This document shows, piece by piece, positions 37,443-43,582 of a DNA stretch of 43,582 nucleotides (positions within the stretch are counted from its first letter, which is position 1; each line of letters starts with the position of its first letter). Both the position numbers and the translations under genes were made by a program. Location of the stretch: NCBI GenBank assembly GCA_049619235.1, contig JBMZMP010000002.1:1-43582 (forward strand). The letters run 5' to 3'. This DNA comes from Thermoplasmatota archaeon (lineage in GTDB: Archaea > Thermoplasmatota > E2 > JACPAO01 > JAHFTW01). The notes beneath the pieces are model-generated. The model was not told where the DNA came from. It did not search any database and saw nothing but the letters and a program-made list of their open reading frames with translations.

Positions 37443-38738
37443 ATGGTCAAATTCCTCTTCGTTTCCCTGGACGTCAGCCTCATCGGGGACATCGCTTGGC
37501 GCGTGGCCGAGGAAGGCCACGACGTGCGGTACTTCATCGGCGCCGAAGGGGACAAGGAAATCGCTGATGGGTTCGTCACCAAGACCGACGACTGGAAAGC
37601 AGACACGGACTGGGCGGACGTCATCGTCTTCGACGACATCTGGGTCGGCTCCAAGATCGGTGTCGGGAAAATCGCGAACGAACTCCGCGCCAAGGGCAAA
37701 GCCGTCGTCGCAGGCACCCCGGAAACGGACCTCCTCGAAGACGACCGCGGGTTTGCCATGGAAATCCTCGAAAAACACGGCGTGAAGACCACGCGCCACA
37801 GAGTGTTCACGGACTTCGACGAAGCCATCGCGCAAGTGGAGAAAGACCGCTGCGCCTACGTCATCAAACCACTCGGGGAAGTCCAAAACATCAAGCGACT
37901 GCTCTATGTTGGTCACCGGCCCGACGGCGGCGACGTCATCGAGGTGCTGCAGGCGTACAAGAAAGCCTGGGGCCACCGCATGAAAGGATTCCAACTCCAA
38001 AAGAAACTGCACGGCGTCGAAGTGGCCGTTTGTGGTTTCTTCAACGGCAAGAAATTCATTGAACCCATCAACATCAACTTCGAGCACAAGAAACTCTTCG
38101 ACGGCAACATCGGTCCAAGCACCGGCGAAATGGGCACCAGCATGTTCTGGTCCAAACGCAACAAGTTGTTTGACCAAACCCTTGGAAAACTGGAAGGCTG
38201 GCTCGCCAACACCGGCTACGTCGGCAGCATCGACATCAACTGCATCGTCAACGGCACCGGCATCTACCCACTCGAATTCACGCCCCGCTTCGGCTACCCA
38301 ACCATCATGCTGCAAGCAGCCAGCATGAAAACCCCCATCGGCGACTTCCTCGCGGCCCTCGCCCGCGGCGAAGAGCCCCCCCTGCTCATCAACAAGGGAT
38401 TCCAAGTGGGCGTCCGCATTTGCCTCCCGCCATTCCCGTACAGCGACCCGAAGACCTTCGAAGAAAACAGCCTCAACGCCGCCATCGTGTTCCAAGACGG
38501 CAAAACCGAAGGCGTCCACATCCAGGACGCCAAACGCGTGGACGGCCAATGGCGCGCCCTCGGCGGCGTCGTGCTGTTCGTCACCGGCCAAGGCACCACC
38601 ATGCAAGAAGCCCGCCAACAAGCCTACCGCCGCGTCAAGAACATCATCATCCCCAACATGTACTACCGCACCGACATCGGCCAACGCTGGATTGACGGAG
38701 ATGGAGACCGGTTGCTCAGTTGGGGATACTTGACGTAA
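37443..38738 (+). CDS. PurD-like ATP-grasp enzyme (phosphoribosylamine-glycine ligase family, divergent)
   Basis: ATP-grasp core (YVIKPLGE..., IYPLEFTPRFGYP) and a PurD-like C-domain (GQGTTMQEARQQAYRRVKNIIIPNMYYRTDIG). It lacks the canonical GGREHA N-terminal motif. Confidence 0.72.
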   Translation: MVKFLFVSLDVSLIGDIAWRVAEEGHDVRYFIGAEGDKEIADGFVTKTDDWKADTDWADVIVFDDIWVGSKIGVGKIANELRAKGKAVVAGTPETDLLEDDRGFAMEILEKHGVKTTRHRVFTDFDEAIAQVEKDRCAYVIKPLGEVQNIKRLLYVGHRPDGGDVIEVLQAYKKAWGHRMKGFQLQKKLHGVEVAVCGFFNGKKFIEPININFEHKKLFDGNIGPSTGEMGTSMFWSKRNKLFDQTLGKLEGWLANTGYVGSIDINCIVNGTGIYPLEFTPRFGYPTIMLQAASMKTPIGDFLAALARGEEPPLLINKGFQVGVRICLPPFPYSDPKTFEENSLNAAIVFQDGKTEGVHIQDAKRVDGQWRALGGVVLFVTGQGTTMQEARQQAYRRVKNIIIPNMYYRTDIGQRWIDGDGDRLLSWGYLT

Positions 38739-39020
38739 TCAGTCCAAATCGGCAACCCAGCCGTAGCCATCGCGCCGGTGGAAAACCCGCAACACGACCA
38801 CGTCTGTGTCAATCGTGTAGGCAATCCTCCATGCGCCGACGCGAACCCGATACACCGGTTGCCCAGGCCCCGCTTCCAGTTTCTTGAAGTCTAGTTTCCC
38901 CTCCCGGTTCATCGGGTCCTTTCCGATTTGTTGCAGCGCGCCCCGGAGTTCCTTCTTGGGTTTGGGCGCCATCGAGCGCACGACCGGAGCAGCGTGTTGC
39001 GCATCAAGAAGGACCTTCAC
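38739..39020 (-). CDS. Type II toxin, RelE/ParE family
   Basis: YRVRVGAWRIAYTIDTDVVVLRVFHRRDGY is a classic RelE/ParE core. GTGA overlap with the antitoxin gene. Confidence 0.85.
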   Translation of the reverse strand: MKVLLDAQHAAPVVRSMAPKPKKELRGALQQIGKDPMNREGKLDFKKLEAGPGQPVYRVRVGAWRIAYTIDTDVVVLRVFHRRDGYGWVADLD

Positions 39021-39235
39021 AAGTCTTCGAGTGCCACGTAGGACTCGCGCGGGGTTGTGAGGTACTGCTGACGCAGTTCCTCGACGAATGACTCTCGCTG
39101 CACGCGGTCCATCAATGCAGTCAGGATTTGTTCATGGCTCATCCCGGCGTGGCCGAAGGTTTTGAGCCGGTCGCGAACCGCGGGGTCCACGGAAATCGTT
39201 GACTTCATGCGCAACCATGTGCGTTCATGTGGCAT
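39017..39235 (-). CDS. Putative antitoxin
   Basis: Small ORF immediately upstream of and overlapping the toxin gene. MKSTISVDPAVRDRLKTFG resembles archaeal VapB-like antitoxin N-termini. The true start may be ATG at 39208. Confidence 0.65.
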   Translation of the reverse strand: MPHERTWLRMKSTISVDPAVRDRLKTFGHAGMSHEQILTALMDRVQRESFVEELRQQYLTTPRESYVALEDL

Positions 39236-39330
39236 AATGGTTGTGGCTCCTGGTTCTCACGGGACTTGTAAGGCAGTGAAAGGCCAAGTTGGCTTTGGAG
39301 AGGTGCAAAAAACTACTCGGAACCTGTTCG

Positions 39331-39582
39331 CTAGCCAAGCCTTCGACCCGTTTTCGCTTCATGGCACAGTTTGCATAGCGTCCATAAATTACTCCACGTG
39401 TTTTCCCCTTTTCTTGACAACGGCGCAATGTGGTCAACCTGCAAATGCGTCGTTGATGCGCAAATCACACATTTTTCTCCGTCTCGCTCAATGACGGCCT
39501 CTCGCATCCAGCTCCATTCCCGACTTCTTGGCGAGCCCCCAGGGTACAAACCATCGTGTACCGCCCAATAATCCGCTTGCAA
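39331..39582 (-). CDS. HNH endonuclease (possibly N-terminally truncated or degraded)
   Basis: RDGEKCVIC...LQVDHIAPLSRKG...NLWTLCKLCHEAK. The listed start is TTG. The same frame stays open upstream through 39780 (into the DoxX coding region) with no ATG, GTG or TTG. Confidence 0.65.
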   Translation of the reverse strand: MQADYWAVHDGLYPGGSPRSREWSWMREAVIERDGEKCVICASTTHLQVDHIAPLSRKGENTWSNLWTLCKLCHEAKTGRRLG

Positions 39583-39769
39583 ATCTTTGATGGCACGCCC
39601 TTTGGAGCCTCGAGACCCAAGCTCAATGAGCCGTAGCTCCGACCTGCGAATTTTCCCTGCCTTCGTTTCACTAGACCAACGGTGCGCAGATATTTCGCCA
39701 AGGCCGGCTAGGAAATCTCGTCGTGGGTCTGGTTTGCAATCTGCGCAACGCGTGAAAACTTGGCCATGC

Positions 39770-40168
39770 TCACAGATGGTCGTTCGAACCCCTCCACTCC
39801 TTCCACGCCCCCGTACTCCACAACGCCCACGCCACGAGCACCGGCTGGAAGAACAACCGAATCAACCGCTTGCCGTCCGTGTCCAGTCCGAATGCGTCCA
39901 CGCCGTCAATGTATTGCCACACATTCCCCGGAAAAATGACCACGAAGAACGCCGCCGTGATCCAACCCATTTGCACCTCGTTCCTTGGCAGGAACAGGAG
40001 TGTGCCAAGGAGAAGTTCGACGATGCCAGATAGCACGACGACGAGGTCCGCGTCCAGGGGAGACCAAGAGGGGACTTGGGCTTGGAACTCTGCGCGGGCG
40101 TGGGTCAAGTGGGCCGTACCGGCGTAGAAGAGGAAGGAGGCGAGGAGGAGTTTGGCTGCTGTTTTCAT
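39770..40168 (-). CDS. DoxX family membrane protein
   Basis: MKTAAKLLLASFLFYAGTAHL and four TM segments. The ATG lies 5 nt after the P450 stop. Confidence 0.8.
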   Translation of the reverse strand: MKTAAKLLLASFLFYAGTAHLTHARAEFQAQVPSWSPLDADLVVVLSGIVELLLGTLLFLPRNEVQMGWITAAFFVVIFPGNVWQYIDGVDAFGLDTDGKRLIRLFFQPVLVAWALWSTGAWKEWRGSNDHL

Positions 40169-40173
40169 CGCAG

Positions 40174-41598
40174 TTACCTCCGTTTCACCCAAATCGTGGT
40201 TGCATCCGCTGGCTTTGTCGAGACTCCCGCCACCGCTTCCGCGGGAGGCTTCGTGCTCCAGAATCGAAAGAGCTTCACCATGCCTCCAACGAGGAGTCCC
40301 ACCTCAAGCATGCCGAGGAATTTCCCGGGGCAAACGCGCGCGCCATGGCCAAATCCGAAGTGAAGGGCTTCGTTTGTGAGACCTTCTTCCTTGATGAACT
40401 GCCATCGTGCGGGTTCGAATTCAATGGCCGGATGGCCGGTCTTGTCCACGCCCCAGAACTCTTCGCATCGGTTTGCATGCCACACATCAAGAACAACGTG
40501 CGTCCCCTTTGGAATCTTGAGCGTTCGAGATTCGCCGGCAGTGACCACCGTGTCCGCCGTGGCAAGCCGCGGAAGAAAATACAGGGCCGGTGTGAGCCGC
40601 AACGTTTCCTGAATGGCCGCGTTGAGCATGGGGCATTTTTCCAGATTGTCTGGGTTGTACACATCAAGTTCACTCACTTCATCATGAATGGCTGCTTGTA
40701 GGTCAGGGCGATGGGCGAGGTGTGAGATGGTCCAAGCGGCAAGCGATGTGGTGGCTTCCAGGGCCCCGGCCAAGAAGACGCGGAGGTTGGGTCGAAGGTC
40801 TTCGTCAGGCACATCGACGTTGAACTTCTTCCACGCGCCTTGCCCAGTCTTTCGGCCTTCTAGCGCGTGGTCCACAAGGGCCTCAAAATCCGCCTTCCAG
40901 CGTTTTGTTTCCGAGCCCCCGCGAGAGAGCGGGTTCACGGTTTCGCGAACCATGTTTTTGATGAGCTTTTCCAGCGATGGAACGAAGCGAGTACGGACCT
41001 CCTCGTAACTGACTTGGCCCCCGAAGAAATTGTTCACAAGCATCTCGAGCATCAAGGCGCTGATTTCGGGTTCAAGCGCAATCTCCAACCCATCCGGGTG
41101 CACCGATCTGTGCCGGGCGCCGAATGCATCCAGCCGCTCGCCTACGGTTTTCCGAAATGTTCTTTCGAATTCGCCAAAGATTTCTGGTTGGAACAAAGCC
41201 GACGCTGCAAACGGTCGAGCCGCGAGGCGTTTGTGATTTCGCCATGCAGTCCGGTTGAGGTACAACATGGTCTGCGCCCCCGTGGCTCGAGCAATGCCAC
41301 TGGTTGGCCATGTGTCTCGGTCAAATTGCCCCGGCTTGGCCCCCGAATCAAGAAGGACTGCCTTGATGATGCTAGGGTCGCGAGTGATGAGCGCAAGCCC
41401 CATGGATGGTACCTTTGCGTAGCGGTTGTGCTTTGCATCCGACTCTTCTTTGTCCGCACCCCAGAAGACTGCGTCGAGGATTCTTAGCGGCTTGCGGTAA
41501 TTCCAAAGGTGCGGAAATGGCAAACCATGTGGCGTCCGCCGGAGCAAGCGAAAACGGCTTGTCTGGATGTTCCCTCCGAACGGTGAACGCTTCGGCAT
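40174..41598 (-). CDS. Cytochrome P450
   Basis: Heme-binding loop FGFGHGARVCPG, ExxR (QETLRL), and I-helix AGALEATTS. Confidence 0.93.
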   Translation of the reverse strand: MPKRSPFGGNIQTSRFRLLRRTPHGLPFPHLWNYRKPLRILDAVFWGADKEESDAKHNRYAKVPSMGLALITRDPSIIKAVLLDSGAKPGQFDRDTWPTSGIARATGAQTMLYLNRTAWRNHKRLAARPFAASALFQPEIFGEFERTFRKTVGERLDAFGARHRSVHPDGLEIALEPEISALMLEMLVNNFFGGQVSYEEVRTRFVPSLEKLIKNMVRETVNPLSRGGSETKRWKADFEALVDHALEGRKTGQGAWKKFNVDVPDEDLRPNLRVFLAGALEATTSLAAWTISHLAHRPDLQAAIHDEVSELDVYNPDNLEKCPMLNAAIQETLRLTPALYFLPRLATADTVVTAGESRTLKIPKGTHVVLDVWHANRCEEFWGVDKTGHPAIEFEPARWQFIKEEGLTNEALHFGFGHGARVCPGKFLGMLEVGLLVGGMVKLFRFWSTKPPAEAVAGVSTKPADATTIWVKRR

Positions 41599-41620
41599 TG
41601 GTAATTGACCGAAGACAGCG

Positions 41621-41628
41621 TATTAAAG
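41621..41628 (-). promoter_or_regulatory. TATA-like box (CTTTAATA on the minus strand) upstream of the P450 gene
   Basis: Centred about 26 nt upstream of ATG 41598. Confidence 0.4.
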
Positions 41629-41692
41629 CACGATTTTTCGCCAGGGGCCAGGGAGTGCTGCACGGCCGAACATGAGCAGCCGAAGCCAGATG

Positions 41693-42319
41693 TTAGGCGA
41701 TCGAGCCGGAGGTTGGCGGGCCAATGTTTGACTGATGCAACCAAAATTTGCTGGTGGCGGAATGGACGAGAAAGAAACACCAAACCATCAGAATCGTGAA
41801 GATGAAGTCAACCCATGCTGATTGTGTGAAGAGGCCGAGAAACACCGGAATCACAATTATGGCAGGCAAAAAAATGCGGGGCAGTGGCTGGGCATAGCCT
41901 TGTTCGTCGAGCGGGGACTCAAATTGTCGAAGCTCTAACCAGAGGTACACCGCCCACGCAAGTTGTGCTCCAAGTGCCAAGCCGAAGAGCAAGAGGTCTG
42001 ATCCGAGTTCATCTGCATTCCAATCCGATTGTTTGCCTTTCCAAAGCCCAATCGGCACAGAGGCCAACAAAATCGCCAGCCCTACCAAGTAGATGCCTCC
42101 ATGGTGTTTTTTTCCAGTTTTTTGGTCCATTTCTTGGAAGACGGCCCAGTTGTACCAGAAGAAGTAGATGCCAAGTGTGACAACCCCATAGAAGAACGAC
42201 ATCCCGAAAGACCGCCGTGGCACGAATTTGGCAGTGTCTTCTACGTCGTCACATTCGGGGCACAAGAAACTACCATCGTGCGCCCTCTCCATCATACGTC
42301 CGCAGGTTCGACAATTCAC
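41693..42319 (-). CDS. Membrane protein with an N-terminal zinc ribbon and a DUF4234-like TM region
   Basis: CRTC...CPEC zinc ribbon, then YGVVTLGIYFFWYNW and further TM segments. GTG start. Visibly lower G+C than the upstream genes. Confidence 0.65.
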   Translation of the reverse strand: MNCRTCGRMMERAHDGSFLCPECDDVEDTAKFVPRRSFGMSFFYGVVTLGIYFFWYNWAVFQEMDQKTGKKHHGGIYLVGLAILLASVPIGLWKGKQSDWNADELGSDLLLFGLALGAQLAWAVYLWLELRQFESPLDEQGYAQPLPRIFLPAIIVIPVFLGLFTQSAWVDFIFTILMVWCFFLVHSATSKFWLHQSNIGPPTSGSIA

Positions 42320-42356
42320 GTGCCATGAATTGCATGATCCGATAAAAGGGCGGGGG

Positions 42357-42455
42357 TTACCGTGCAGTTTGCGATTCTTGCCTAGCGTGGGGGAGGTGGG
42401 CTGTGCCGGCGTAGAAGAGGAAAGAGGCGAGGAGGAGGCAGGCCCCCGTTTTCAC
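42357..42455 (-). pseudogene. 5' fragment (32 codons then TAA) of a second DoxX gene copy
   Basis: Translates to VKTGACLLLASFLFYAGTAHLPHARQESQTAR*, compared with MKTAAKLLLASFLFYAGTAHLTHARAEFQ of the intact DoxX. At the nucleotide level 42385..42455 aligns with 40098..40168 and shares a 34-nt core with a single mismatch (CCGGCGTAGAAGAGGAA[G/A]GAGGCGAGGAGGAG). Confidence 0.6.
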
Positions 42456-42490
42456 AAGAATACCATTTTGATTTTCTAGAAACAGTCAAA

Positions 42491-43582
42491 TTGGCGCGGG
42501 CCTTTTTATTTTCCTTGATTCCTACTGAATTATGGGTTGCGGCGGCTTCTATCAGCGCTGGCTATGGCCTGTCTAGCTGGCGCAATAGATCGATTCCAAG
42601 TTTTTCTCCATGGGGCTTCCATTTCCATTGCTTTGAAGATGATGAAGTAAATCTTGATGAATCTACTCAAGGGCAGGTTCGTAGCTTAATTGCGCTCCCG
42701 CCTGCATGCTTAGATTTGGACAATGTTCGGGAGGTTCGATTTGCATACGAACATGTCGAAAGTATTTGCAAACAATACCCTGTTGTGATTTCAAATCTAA
42801 GCCGCACTAGCAACCTAAATGAAAATGCGAATCGAGCGAAACTGATACGTGAAATTCGTAGATTTAGACGCACGCAAACGATGGACGTTTGCTTGTCATT
42901 CATATATAATGGGGCCATCAGCGCGTCCGACTTCTCAAGTACTGAACCAAAATTAGAATTCGTCGAGCATCATTTCGGTGGAGGGTGCTATATGCTTGAT
43001 TGCGAGACGAGCCTAATTTTCATTGGAAACGAATTTTCTGAGAAACCGTTTCGAAGGGATAAGGTGGCTAGTTTTGTCACCTTGCTGGCTGGCTTGAATG
43101 GCTCTGAATTTGCCGCATTTTCGGCCGATTGTCTGAGAATTGCGAAGGAACAGCTAACAATAGCTAAATCCGTTCGAGATGAGTTAGAGCAGATTGTTGA
43201 GGGACATTCGCGCTGGTTTGGGGGCGTTGCAATCACTAACCTAGGTTCGAGCCCACTAGTAGTTGACAGAAGTAAATGTGAATTGCAGATTTTTGACGAG
43301 AGCCTTTCAGAGGTCAGCCTGGATTGCGAAATATATCCCGCAAGAAAAACCCCTGAGCTGAGGGGATTCCCAACGGCGGGTCCACTTATTGTTGGTCCAC
43401 AGTCCACCGAATATTTTCAGCTAAGGACAAGGCAAATTCAGAAAGAAATTCAGCACGGAGCTCATCTGCGTCAAGCCTTCCGTTCGGGGAGTGCGCAAGC
43501 GAAACTCAAAATTTCATATCACGGAAAGAGCGTCCTCCTAACGTGGACAAAAAAGAGCGCAAAATTTCCATTTAGAGCCTAG
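42491..43582 (+). CDS. Orphan hypothetical protein (363 aa) with an N-terminal hydrophobic anchor, in a low-G+C block
   Basis: Long ORF in an A/T-rich region, where random stop codons are frequent, so it is likely coding. TTG start as listed. No motif recognised. The TAG stop is the last triplet of the window. Confidence 0.55.
   Translation: MARAFLFSLIPTELWVAAASISAGYGLSSWRNRSIPSFSPWGFHFHCFEDDEVNLDESTQGQVRSLIALPPACLDLDNVREVRFAYEHVESICKQYPVVISNLSRTSNLNENANRAKLIREIRRFRRTQTMDVCLSFIYNGAISASDFSSTEPKLEFVEHHFGGGCYMLDCETSLIFIGNEFSEKPFRRDKVASFVTLLAGLNGSEFAAFSADCLRIAKEQLTIAKSVRDELEQIVEGHSRWFGGVAITNLGSSPLVVDRSKCELQIFDESLSEVSLDCEIYPARKTPELRGFPTAGPLIVGPQSTEYFQLRTRQIQKEIQHGAHLRQAFRSGSAQAKLKISYHGKSVLLTWTKKSAKFPFRA

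Follow-up and report, generated by a model that had tools for sequence, protein, structure and literature searches.

Introduction

Defence islands and integration hot spots are recognised by a fixed slot beside a core gene, by cargo that differs from one relative to the next, by atypical base composition, and by an integrase, a tRNA target or attachment repeats; the acquired islet in a defence hot spot is a well-known phenomenon. Single-gene superinfection-exclusion and abortive-infection (Abi) proteins, as generally understood, are solitary, carry one membrane helix and no enzymatic signature, diverge fast, and are distributed patchily and near defence genes. A third group, the DUF4145 proteins, forms a HEPN family tied to restriction and abortive-infection systems, in which fusions with zinc ribbons and transmembrane (TM) segments occur (PMC3710099), and RAZR is a defence RNase that combines a zinc finger with a DUF4145 RNase domain (PMC13017515). 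In this study we compare these systems with a locus at the end of a contig of 43,582 nt from the metagenome-assembled genome of a Thermoplasmatota archaeon (contig JBMZMP010000002.1 of GCA_049619235.1; hereafter the window, meaning the whole stretch analysed), where a gene of 363 codons (ORF363, 42491..43582, plus strand) lies in a block of low-G+C DNA close to the purine-biosynthesis gene purP.

The locus resembles defence islands in its fixed position beside purP, in the differing cargo found there in relatives and in its atypical composition; it differs from them in having no integrase, tRNA target or attachment repeats, and its cargo looks like a mosaic of single-gene gains. ORF363 shares with superinfection-exclusion and Abi proteins all of the features listed above and differs from them in showing no PADLOC or PHROG similarity and in not being found on phages or plasmids. 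Its family is uncharacterised and lies outside the Pfam, NCBIfam, PHROGs and PADLOC models. The gene between ORF363 and purP resembles the DUF4145-type HEPN RNases such as RAZR in a C-terminal match, an Rx4H motif and sub-threshold matches to DUF4145 and HepT-like models; it differs in lacking a zinc finger, in falling below the Pfam gathering score, in having no PADLOC match and in abutting or overlapping purP in two genomes, which is unusual for a defence gene.

An initial annotation, made from the sequence of the window alone, had described the block as a recently acquired accessory cassette, with ORF363 as an orphan membrane-anchored protein and a possible role in defence or exclusion. Our analysis supports the foreign origin, the reality of the gene, the membrane anchor and the accessory character of the neighbourhood. 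The low-G+C block is best read not as one cassette but as a mosaic of accessory genes, each gained separately, in a slot of variable content, and ORF363 belongs to a family of proteins with members in bacteria and archaea.

Results

Base composition and extent of the low-G+C block

G+C content was about 0.60 throughout the window and dropped in its last ~1.9 kb (0.485 over 41599-43582 versus 0.601 over 1-41598), with the single best change point at ~41721. The three 60-nt lines that had been counted by hand in the initial annotation (22/60, 25/60 and 40/60 G+C) were exact on recount. ORF363 was the most foreign gene in the block, with a G+C content of 0.458 that lies at z = -8.0 relative to windows of 1092 nt taken from outside the block (mean 0.603, sd 0.018). 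Its deviation sits at synonymous sites: G+C at third codon positions (GC3) was 0.426, compared with 0.67-0.82 in 11 core genes, and its synonymous-usage score was -0.64, compared with +0.05 to +0.60 in the comparison genes. Among its neighbours, GC3 was 0.437 in the HEPN-like gene, 0.536 in a small HNH gene, 0.598 in a zinc-ribbon gene (Zn208) and 0.634 in a cytochrome P450 gene, the last being slightly atypical. The block has the atypical base composition and codon usage of a horizontally acquired genomic island.

The contig ends exactly at the stop codon of ORF363, which is deposited at NCBI as ACPHK8_00500. By exact-sequence look-up we retrieved locus L001 of an independent Logan assembly (SRR27204719); it covers the whole block and extends 5.4 kb further, through a 214-aa open reading frame (ORF), purP (Pfam DUF1246/DUF1297), a PqqD gene and an OPT transporter gene. 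G+C content remained at 0.47-0.50 through the 214-aa gene and was back at 0.58-0.62 at purP. The block therefore measures ~2.5 kb and holds three genes on alternating strands, Zn208, ORF363 and the HEPN-like gene; it covers ~41.7-43.58 kb of the window and runs ~660 nt, or one more gene, beyond its end, stopping at the housekeeping gene purP.

Across the block the two assemblies agree fully apart from 45 nt upstream of ORF363 (window 42453/42454; L001 9921-9965), which are present in the Logan assembly (ATTAATTTTTGAAATCC... / ATTAATTTTTGAAATCCAAGTCACTTATCAGCATAAGCAGGAAGG) and missing from the window. Their absence takes away the ATG of a truncated DoxX gene that is described below, and it reflects either strain heterogeneity or a difference in assembly. 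This indel and the termination of the contig at the ORF363 stop hint at strain-level heterogeneity in the block.

A variable slot downstream of purP

One genome per species with purP was scanned, which gave 17 close relatives whose purP is 86-95% identical. The order OPT-PqqD-purP was conserved in these relatives, and the DNA downstream of purP, covered for up to 10 kb where the contig allowed, contained no P450, DoxX, Zn208, ORF363, HEPN or GARS-like gene. The absence of the block from this position in all 17 agrees with the initial proposal that it was acquired. In the relatives, the genes that follow purP within 0-4 kb are homologous to those found at 31-34.8 kb in the window (Polyketide_cyc2, Pyr_excise and an RrnaAD methyltransferase), and the window from ~34.9 kb to the equivalent of ~44.2 kb is accordingly a variable insert relative to them. 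The insert comprises genes for DUF3754, SBF, a GARS-like protein, a ParE/RHH pair, HNH, DoxX, P450, Zn208, ORF363 and the HEPN-like protein, with the low-G+C block at its purP-proximal end.

Elsewhere in the clade the slot is either empty or filled with other cargo. In one relative (L008, 11219-13145) it contains an FRG gene (PADLOC PDC-S15, 8e-39) and a GmrSD_N/NsnA-like gene (1e-52), in DNA with a G+C content of 0.55 versus 0.675. In a second (L012, 1056-4995), on a longer contig than that of L009, an effector-like metallophosphoesterase gene is accompanied by a gene for a 257-aa protein without a name and by DO-GTPase1 (1e-38), and in L009 (4248-4734) a metallophosphoesterase gene is found. 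Known defence genes are present at the orthologous slot in relatives, and the present locus adds ParE, HNH and HEPN-like genes. The relatives suggest that the slot downstream of purP is a hot spot for defence-type genes throughout the clade.

ORF363 is a member of a family of about 360 residues

The frame at 42491..43582 opens with TTG; the NCBI version, of 355 aa, starts from a TTG at codon 9. When the same 1092 nt were shuffled 2000 times, the longest run without a stop reached 214 codons (mean 93), which places the 363 codons observed far beyond chance. A word-indexed search of 5.8 billion proteins matched ORF363 to itself alone. The orphan status that followed from it was overturned by an exhaustive HMMER (phmmer) scan of 1.84 billion cluster representatives, in which 115 proteins were found at E<=1e-3 and 31 at E<=1e-10. 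One of these is 40% identical to ORF363 and the others are 19-34% identical. Most are near full length, 93 of them having 349-387 aa, and they are collinear with ORF363 over residues ~10-362; the family is scattered sparsely over bacteria and archaea. ORF363 had no match in Pfam, PADLOC, PHROGs or NCBIfam, and comparison of the family profile with Protein Data Bank (PDB) sequences gave noise only.

Two alignments were used, one of 93 family sequences (A2) and one of a closer subset (A3). Near-invariant positions in A2 are G24, P36, G165, W242, N250, T313, Q317, G323 and F361, the last being the third residue from the C-terminus; R33, G179, P255, C279 and R327 are common. The family signature consists of an N-terminal hydrophobic helix followed by G-Y...R-x-R-P, and ORF363 has all of the near-invariant residues. 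ORF363 is a member of the unnamed ~360-aa family defined by A2.

The membrane anchor proposed in the initial annotation is N-terminal in the family: the median 19-residue Kyte-Doolittle (KD) mean of the segment is 1.89, and a comparable hydrophobic segment elsewhere in the protein occurs in only 4% of members. The stretch that precedes the segment has a net charge of -0.5, compared with +2.2 for the 12 residues that follow, and the positive-inside rule would place the bulk of the protein in the cytoplasm. A type IV pilin was considered and rejected, as a charged leader and a G/A cleavage motif are both missing, and positive charges come after, not before, the hydrophobic helix.

Predicted structure of ORF363

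Modelling with AlphaFold2 and alignment A2 gave a confident fold (pLDDT 94.4, pTM 0.86), compared with a pLDDT of 32 from the single sequence alone. From the N-terminus, the model shows a helix (residues 2-31), then a long strand, then a helical domain that includes a three-stranded sheet (57-238), and finally a C-terminal, Ig-like beta-sandwich with one inserted helix (240-360). In Foldseek searches against the PDB and BFVD the sandwich alone was matched, at a query-normalised TM score of ~0.2, to ApaG/DUF525, the cytoplasmic domains of Kir channels, TMEM106B/LEA-2-like folds and DUF4352 phage proteins. No full-length match to the model was found in the PDB, and the middle helical domain was unmatched. 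Two alignments returned as full-length, to Kir and to diphtheria toxin, had an rmsd of ~19-21 Å and were discarded as meaningless for a global match.

The likeness to ApaG had a Foldseek probability of 1.0, a target TM score of 0.44-0.57, an rmsd of 4-5.5 Å and an identity of 8-16%. The C-terminal ~125 residues of the ORF363 model superpose on ApaG/DUF525, the Kir cytoplasmic domain and DUF4352/LEA-2-like proteins with probabilities of up to 1.0, and the predicted arrangement of a membrane helix followed by a cytoplasmic Ig-like domain is also that of Kir channels. ORF363 differs from all of them in that about one third of the protein is covered, at a sequence identity of 8-16%, and that it has no Pfam match to those families. 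As far as the model goes, this shows a generic sandwich similarity rather than membership of the ApaG/DUF525 family.

Genomic contexts of the ORF363 family

Ten independent contexts of family members were retrieved, from bacterial and archaeal genomes, and the gene was solitary in every one. An all-against-all comparison of neighbours across the ten loci revealed no partner gene in common. The family gene is lower in G+C than its flanks in nine of the ten loci (sign test p ~0.02): the offset is -29 points in L080, -14 here, -10 in L169 and -3 to -6 in six others, with L074 at +4. The family spreads as a solitary gene-sized islet that is usually poorer in G+C than its host, which is unusual and not unprecedented.

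Four of the ten contexts adjoin restriction-modification (RM), GmrSD, integrase or HEPN genes, a count that comes without a background rate. These are the contexts that speak for a role in conflict with invading elements: an MmeI/Type ISP RM system lies 450 nt from the family gene in L074, a tyrosine integrase gene 236 nt from it in L077, and a HEC-06/GmrSD-type gene at 1 kb in L086, where a PIN-RHH pair is also found, and in the present genome (L001) the neighbour is the HEPN-like gene beside purP. Three loci (L080, L082 and L084) have housekeeping neighbours only. One (L075) is a short contig whose neighbouring genes gave no Pfam match and is uninformative; one (L168), in a 5.75-Mb genome, shows a string of small hypothetical genes. 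In the last (L169-L172) the family gene lies on the same strand as, and between, genes with DHODB_Fe-S_bind and Fer4_20/Pyr_redox_2 domains, in a POR-...-nuo string.

Three of these loci deserve description in their own right. The family member of L080 (P0006, 7728-9081) is a razor-sharp single-gene islet, with a G+C content of 0.377 versus 0.669, between PNPOx and SpoU methylase genes. In L169 (9075-12662; also L170-L172), the member P0030 has a G+C content of 0.477 versus 0.579, and its co-directional flanks are NfnA/SudB-like and NfnB/SudA-like. Genes of the NfnA/NfnB type normally form an adjacent pair, and P0030 looks like a single-gene insertion that has split such a pair. In L168 (11305-15533), whose genome looks like that of a member of the Bacteroidota, seven small genes follow the family member on the same strand; only one has a Pfam match (DUF6398), and they may form an accessory or immunity-type array.

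The HEPN-like gene next to purP

Inspection of the DNA past 43582 showed that the 214-aa gene (L001 11107-11754, window-equivalent 43597-44244; called as 157 aa in the Logan annotation) is on the strand opposite to ORF363 and the same as purP. It converges with ORF363, with 14 nt between the two stop codons, and its start abuts the purP stop. Its only homologue is P0003 of another genome (L079), which is 47-52% identical. The DUF4145 model matched the 214-aa protein at E=2.4e-3 (18.3 bits) and P0003 at 4.4e-4 (20.7 bits), with a cut-off of 23.1, and the HepT-like model matched at 14.7 bits and 20.2 bits (5e-4), respectively, with a cut-off of 23.5. Both proteins keep R-N-(S/T)-A-A-H in the C-terminal part (RNSAAH and RNTAAH), corresponding to the HEPN Rx4-6H signature, and on this basis the 214-aa gene probably encodes a HEPN protein. 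It had no match in PADLOC, and a search of PDB sequences with the HEPN pair returned noise.

In L079 (2752-4547) the homologue comes right after purP, with a 4-nt overlap, and has a G+C content of 0.543 versus 0.651; no ORF363 or Zn208 homologue is nearby. In both genomes the HEPN-like gene is ~10 G+C points below its host and on the same strand as purP. The apparent coupling of a gene for a toxin-type RNase domain to a purine-biosynthesis gene is odd.

Other genes of the block and of the variable region

Zn208 (41693..42319, minus strand), whose base composition is intermediate (G+C 0.512), encodes a 208-aa protein with a CxxC-x13-CxxC motif followed by hydrophobic segments in a multi-pass arrangement. 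The zinc ribbon is included only when a GTG start is used, the Logan call beginning at Met40. Of the initial description as a zinc-ribbon/DUF4234-like membrane protein, the ORF, the CxxC motifs and the hydrophobic segments stand; the assignment to DUF4234 falls below the Pfam gathering score (E=0.044, 14.3 bits versus a cut-off of 25.3). Matches to HVO_2753_ZBP (E=0.025) and to NCBIfam and Zn-ribbon models were likewise sub-threshold, and no homologue of Zn208 was present in the loci or viral contigs searched.

Between Zn208 and ORF363 lies the relic of a DoxX/MauE-like gene (42369..42455, minus strand), amounting to its first ~29 codons. Described earlier as a rearrangement scar, it was borne out by a comparison with the intact gene (39770..40168, minus strand; 132 aa from an ATG at 40168), which gave rise to the duplicated 5′ fragment: 71 nt are 83% identical to the 5′ end of that gene, and 29 aa are 83% identical (E=4e-9). 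The similarity stops exactly at the start codon. The relic forms a direct repeat with 40098-40168 (L001 7563-7633), 2287 nt apart, with P450 and Zn208, but not ORF363, lying between the copies. The DoxX/MauE genes score below Pfam gathering (DoxX 19.4-19.8 versus 23.6; MauE 23 versus 27).

The P450 gene (40174..41598, minus strand) forms the upstream border of the block. The neighbouring toxin-antitoxin module and HNH gene named in the initial annotation were also found: a ParE toxin (38739-39020), an RHH-like antitoxin (39017-39235) and a small HNH endonuclease (39331-39582), all on the minus strand. These are small selfish or accessory genes of the same variable region. In a metagenome scan with P450 the best homologues were only 51-57% identical, and one of them, on a distant 430-kb contig (L133, 10001-12732), forms a convergent adjacent pair with a gene for a GARS-like ATP-grasp protein; the corresponding genes here occupy 37443-41598. 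This arrangement points to insertion of the toxin-antitoxin, HNH and DoxX genes between the two in the present genome. The GARS-like gene itself (37443-38738) encodes a 431-aa ATP-grasp protein with GARS_A and GARS_C and apparently no GARS_N match, a PurD-like paralogue ~5 kb from purP.

Discussion

Taken together, these data are best explained by an acquired mosaic of accessory genes in the variable slot beside purP, with ORF363 as a lone conflict factor. We regard this explanation as a whole as probable, and its structural and evolutionary part as highly likely. In such a scheme ORF363 would act alone as a membrane-tethered sensor or effector against viruses or mobile elements, by exclusion or abortive infection. 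It may form oligomers via the membrane helix and use its cytoplasmic domains to recognise a trigger. Considered by itself, the idea that ORF363 serves in defence or exclusion is plausible and tentative. Somewhat more speculative is the extension to the whole family, which might constitute an undescribed class of single-gene, membrane-anchored exclusion or abortive-infection effectors of bacteria and archaea, carried as a bare low-G+C islet able to enter operons, in which a helical plus Ig-like module would sense the invader and the membrane helix would mediate oligomerisation.

Several results weigh against this explanation or parts of it. The family contexts number only ten, and about half of them are plain housekeeping neighbourhoods. 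Searches of phage and plasmid collections by tblastn, with three members against plasmids and one against phages, gave no match, and no family relatives were found in viral contigs scanned with A3. Among the 93 family members there was no consistent Pfam match and no PADLOC match, the family consensus had no match in Pfam, and A2 contains no invariant acidic or histidine residue to suggest an enzyme. In ORF363 itself the hydrophobicity of the membrane helix is no more than marginal (KD 1.49). The block shows no tRNA, no integrase or transposase domain, no Rfam element and no terminal repeat, its sole flanking repeat being the DoxX 5′ fragment around P450 and Zn208, so that the mobility hallmarks of a genomic island are absent. 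The relatives used for synteny are related at genus or family level only (OPT 52-61% identical), which leaves the timing of the gains uncertain, and the low G+C content of the HEPN-like gene beside purP in L079 too means that part of the block may be old, not recent.

The alternative with the closest standing is that ORF363 is a mobile accessory membrane protein unrelated to conflict, for example an envelope or membrane scaffold or adaptor, or a stress or niche factor, that has settled in a recombination-prone slot in which defence genes are coincidental cargo. This is possible, and the two roles, conflict and non-conflict, are about equally likely. The housekeeping contexts speak for it, as do the member of L169-L172 that is embedded co-directionally in an energy-metabolism string, the lack of defence-model matches and of a catalytic signature in the family, and the generic nature of Ig-like and ApaG-like sandwiches as interaction modules. 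Set against it are the patchiness of the family in bacteria and archaea at only 20-27% identity, its systematically foreign composition, the lack of a conserved partner gene and its recurrence beside RM, GmrSD or integrase genes, a combination that would be expected of conflict genes more than of genes with a physiological role.

That Zn208, ORF363 and the HEPN-like gene form one functional cassette, in which a membrane sensor or effector works with an RNase, is by comparison very improbable and has been largely refuted. The three genes are adjacent and all low in G+C, ORF363 and the HEPN-like gene converge closely, and a precedent is offered by the DUF4145-type HEPN domains fused with zinc ribbons and TM segments (PMC3710099) and by RAZR (PMC13017515). 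However, the HEPN homologue of L079 stands beside purP with neither of the other two, none of the nine other ORF363-family loci has a HEPN or zinc-ribbon neighbour, GC3 differs between the genes (0.60, 0.43 and 0.44), the DoxX relic intervenes between Zn208 and ORF363, and genes on alternating strands cannot form one operon. The single module proposed in the initial annotation is thus not upheld: the three genes have independent distributions, and neither an integrase nor a tRNA nor flanking repeats mark out a mobile unit. More improbable still is an artefact, whether a chimeric contig end, mis-binned DNA or a spurious frame. The coincidence of the contig end with the ORF363 stop codon, the concentration of misassemblies at contig ends and the 45-nt indel between the assemblies could be taken in its favour, but the independent Logan assembly continues across the block as far as purP and differs in sequence by that indel alone, the open frame is longer than in any of the 2000 shuffles, ORF363 has 115 homologues and a fold predicted at pLDDT 94, and the junction of HEPN-like gene and purP recurs in L079. 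For ORF363 itself, a genuine gene, an artefact is excluded.

The defence and accessory gene content of archaea, above all of the uncultured Thermoplasmatota, is poorly charted. This locus offers a clade-wide variable slot beside purP that collects defence-type cargo and, as a further example, a HEPN-like gene that abuts or overlaps a purine-biosynthesis gene. If ORF363 does not serve in defence, what remains is an uncharacterised family in an islet of an ordinary, horizontally acquired kind. With a confidently predicted fold, members in both domains of life, a composition that is nearly always foreign-looking and a gene that always stands alone, the ORF363 family is a tractable candidate for a single-gene conflict system.

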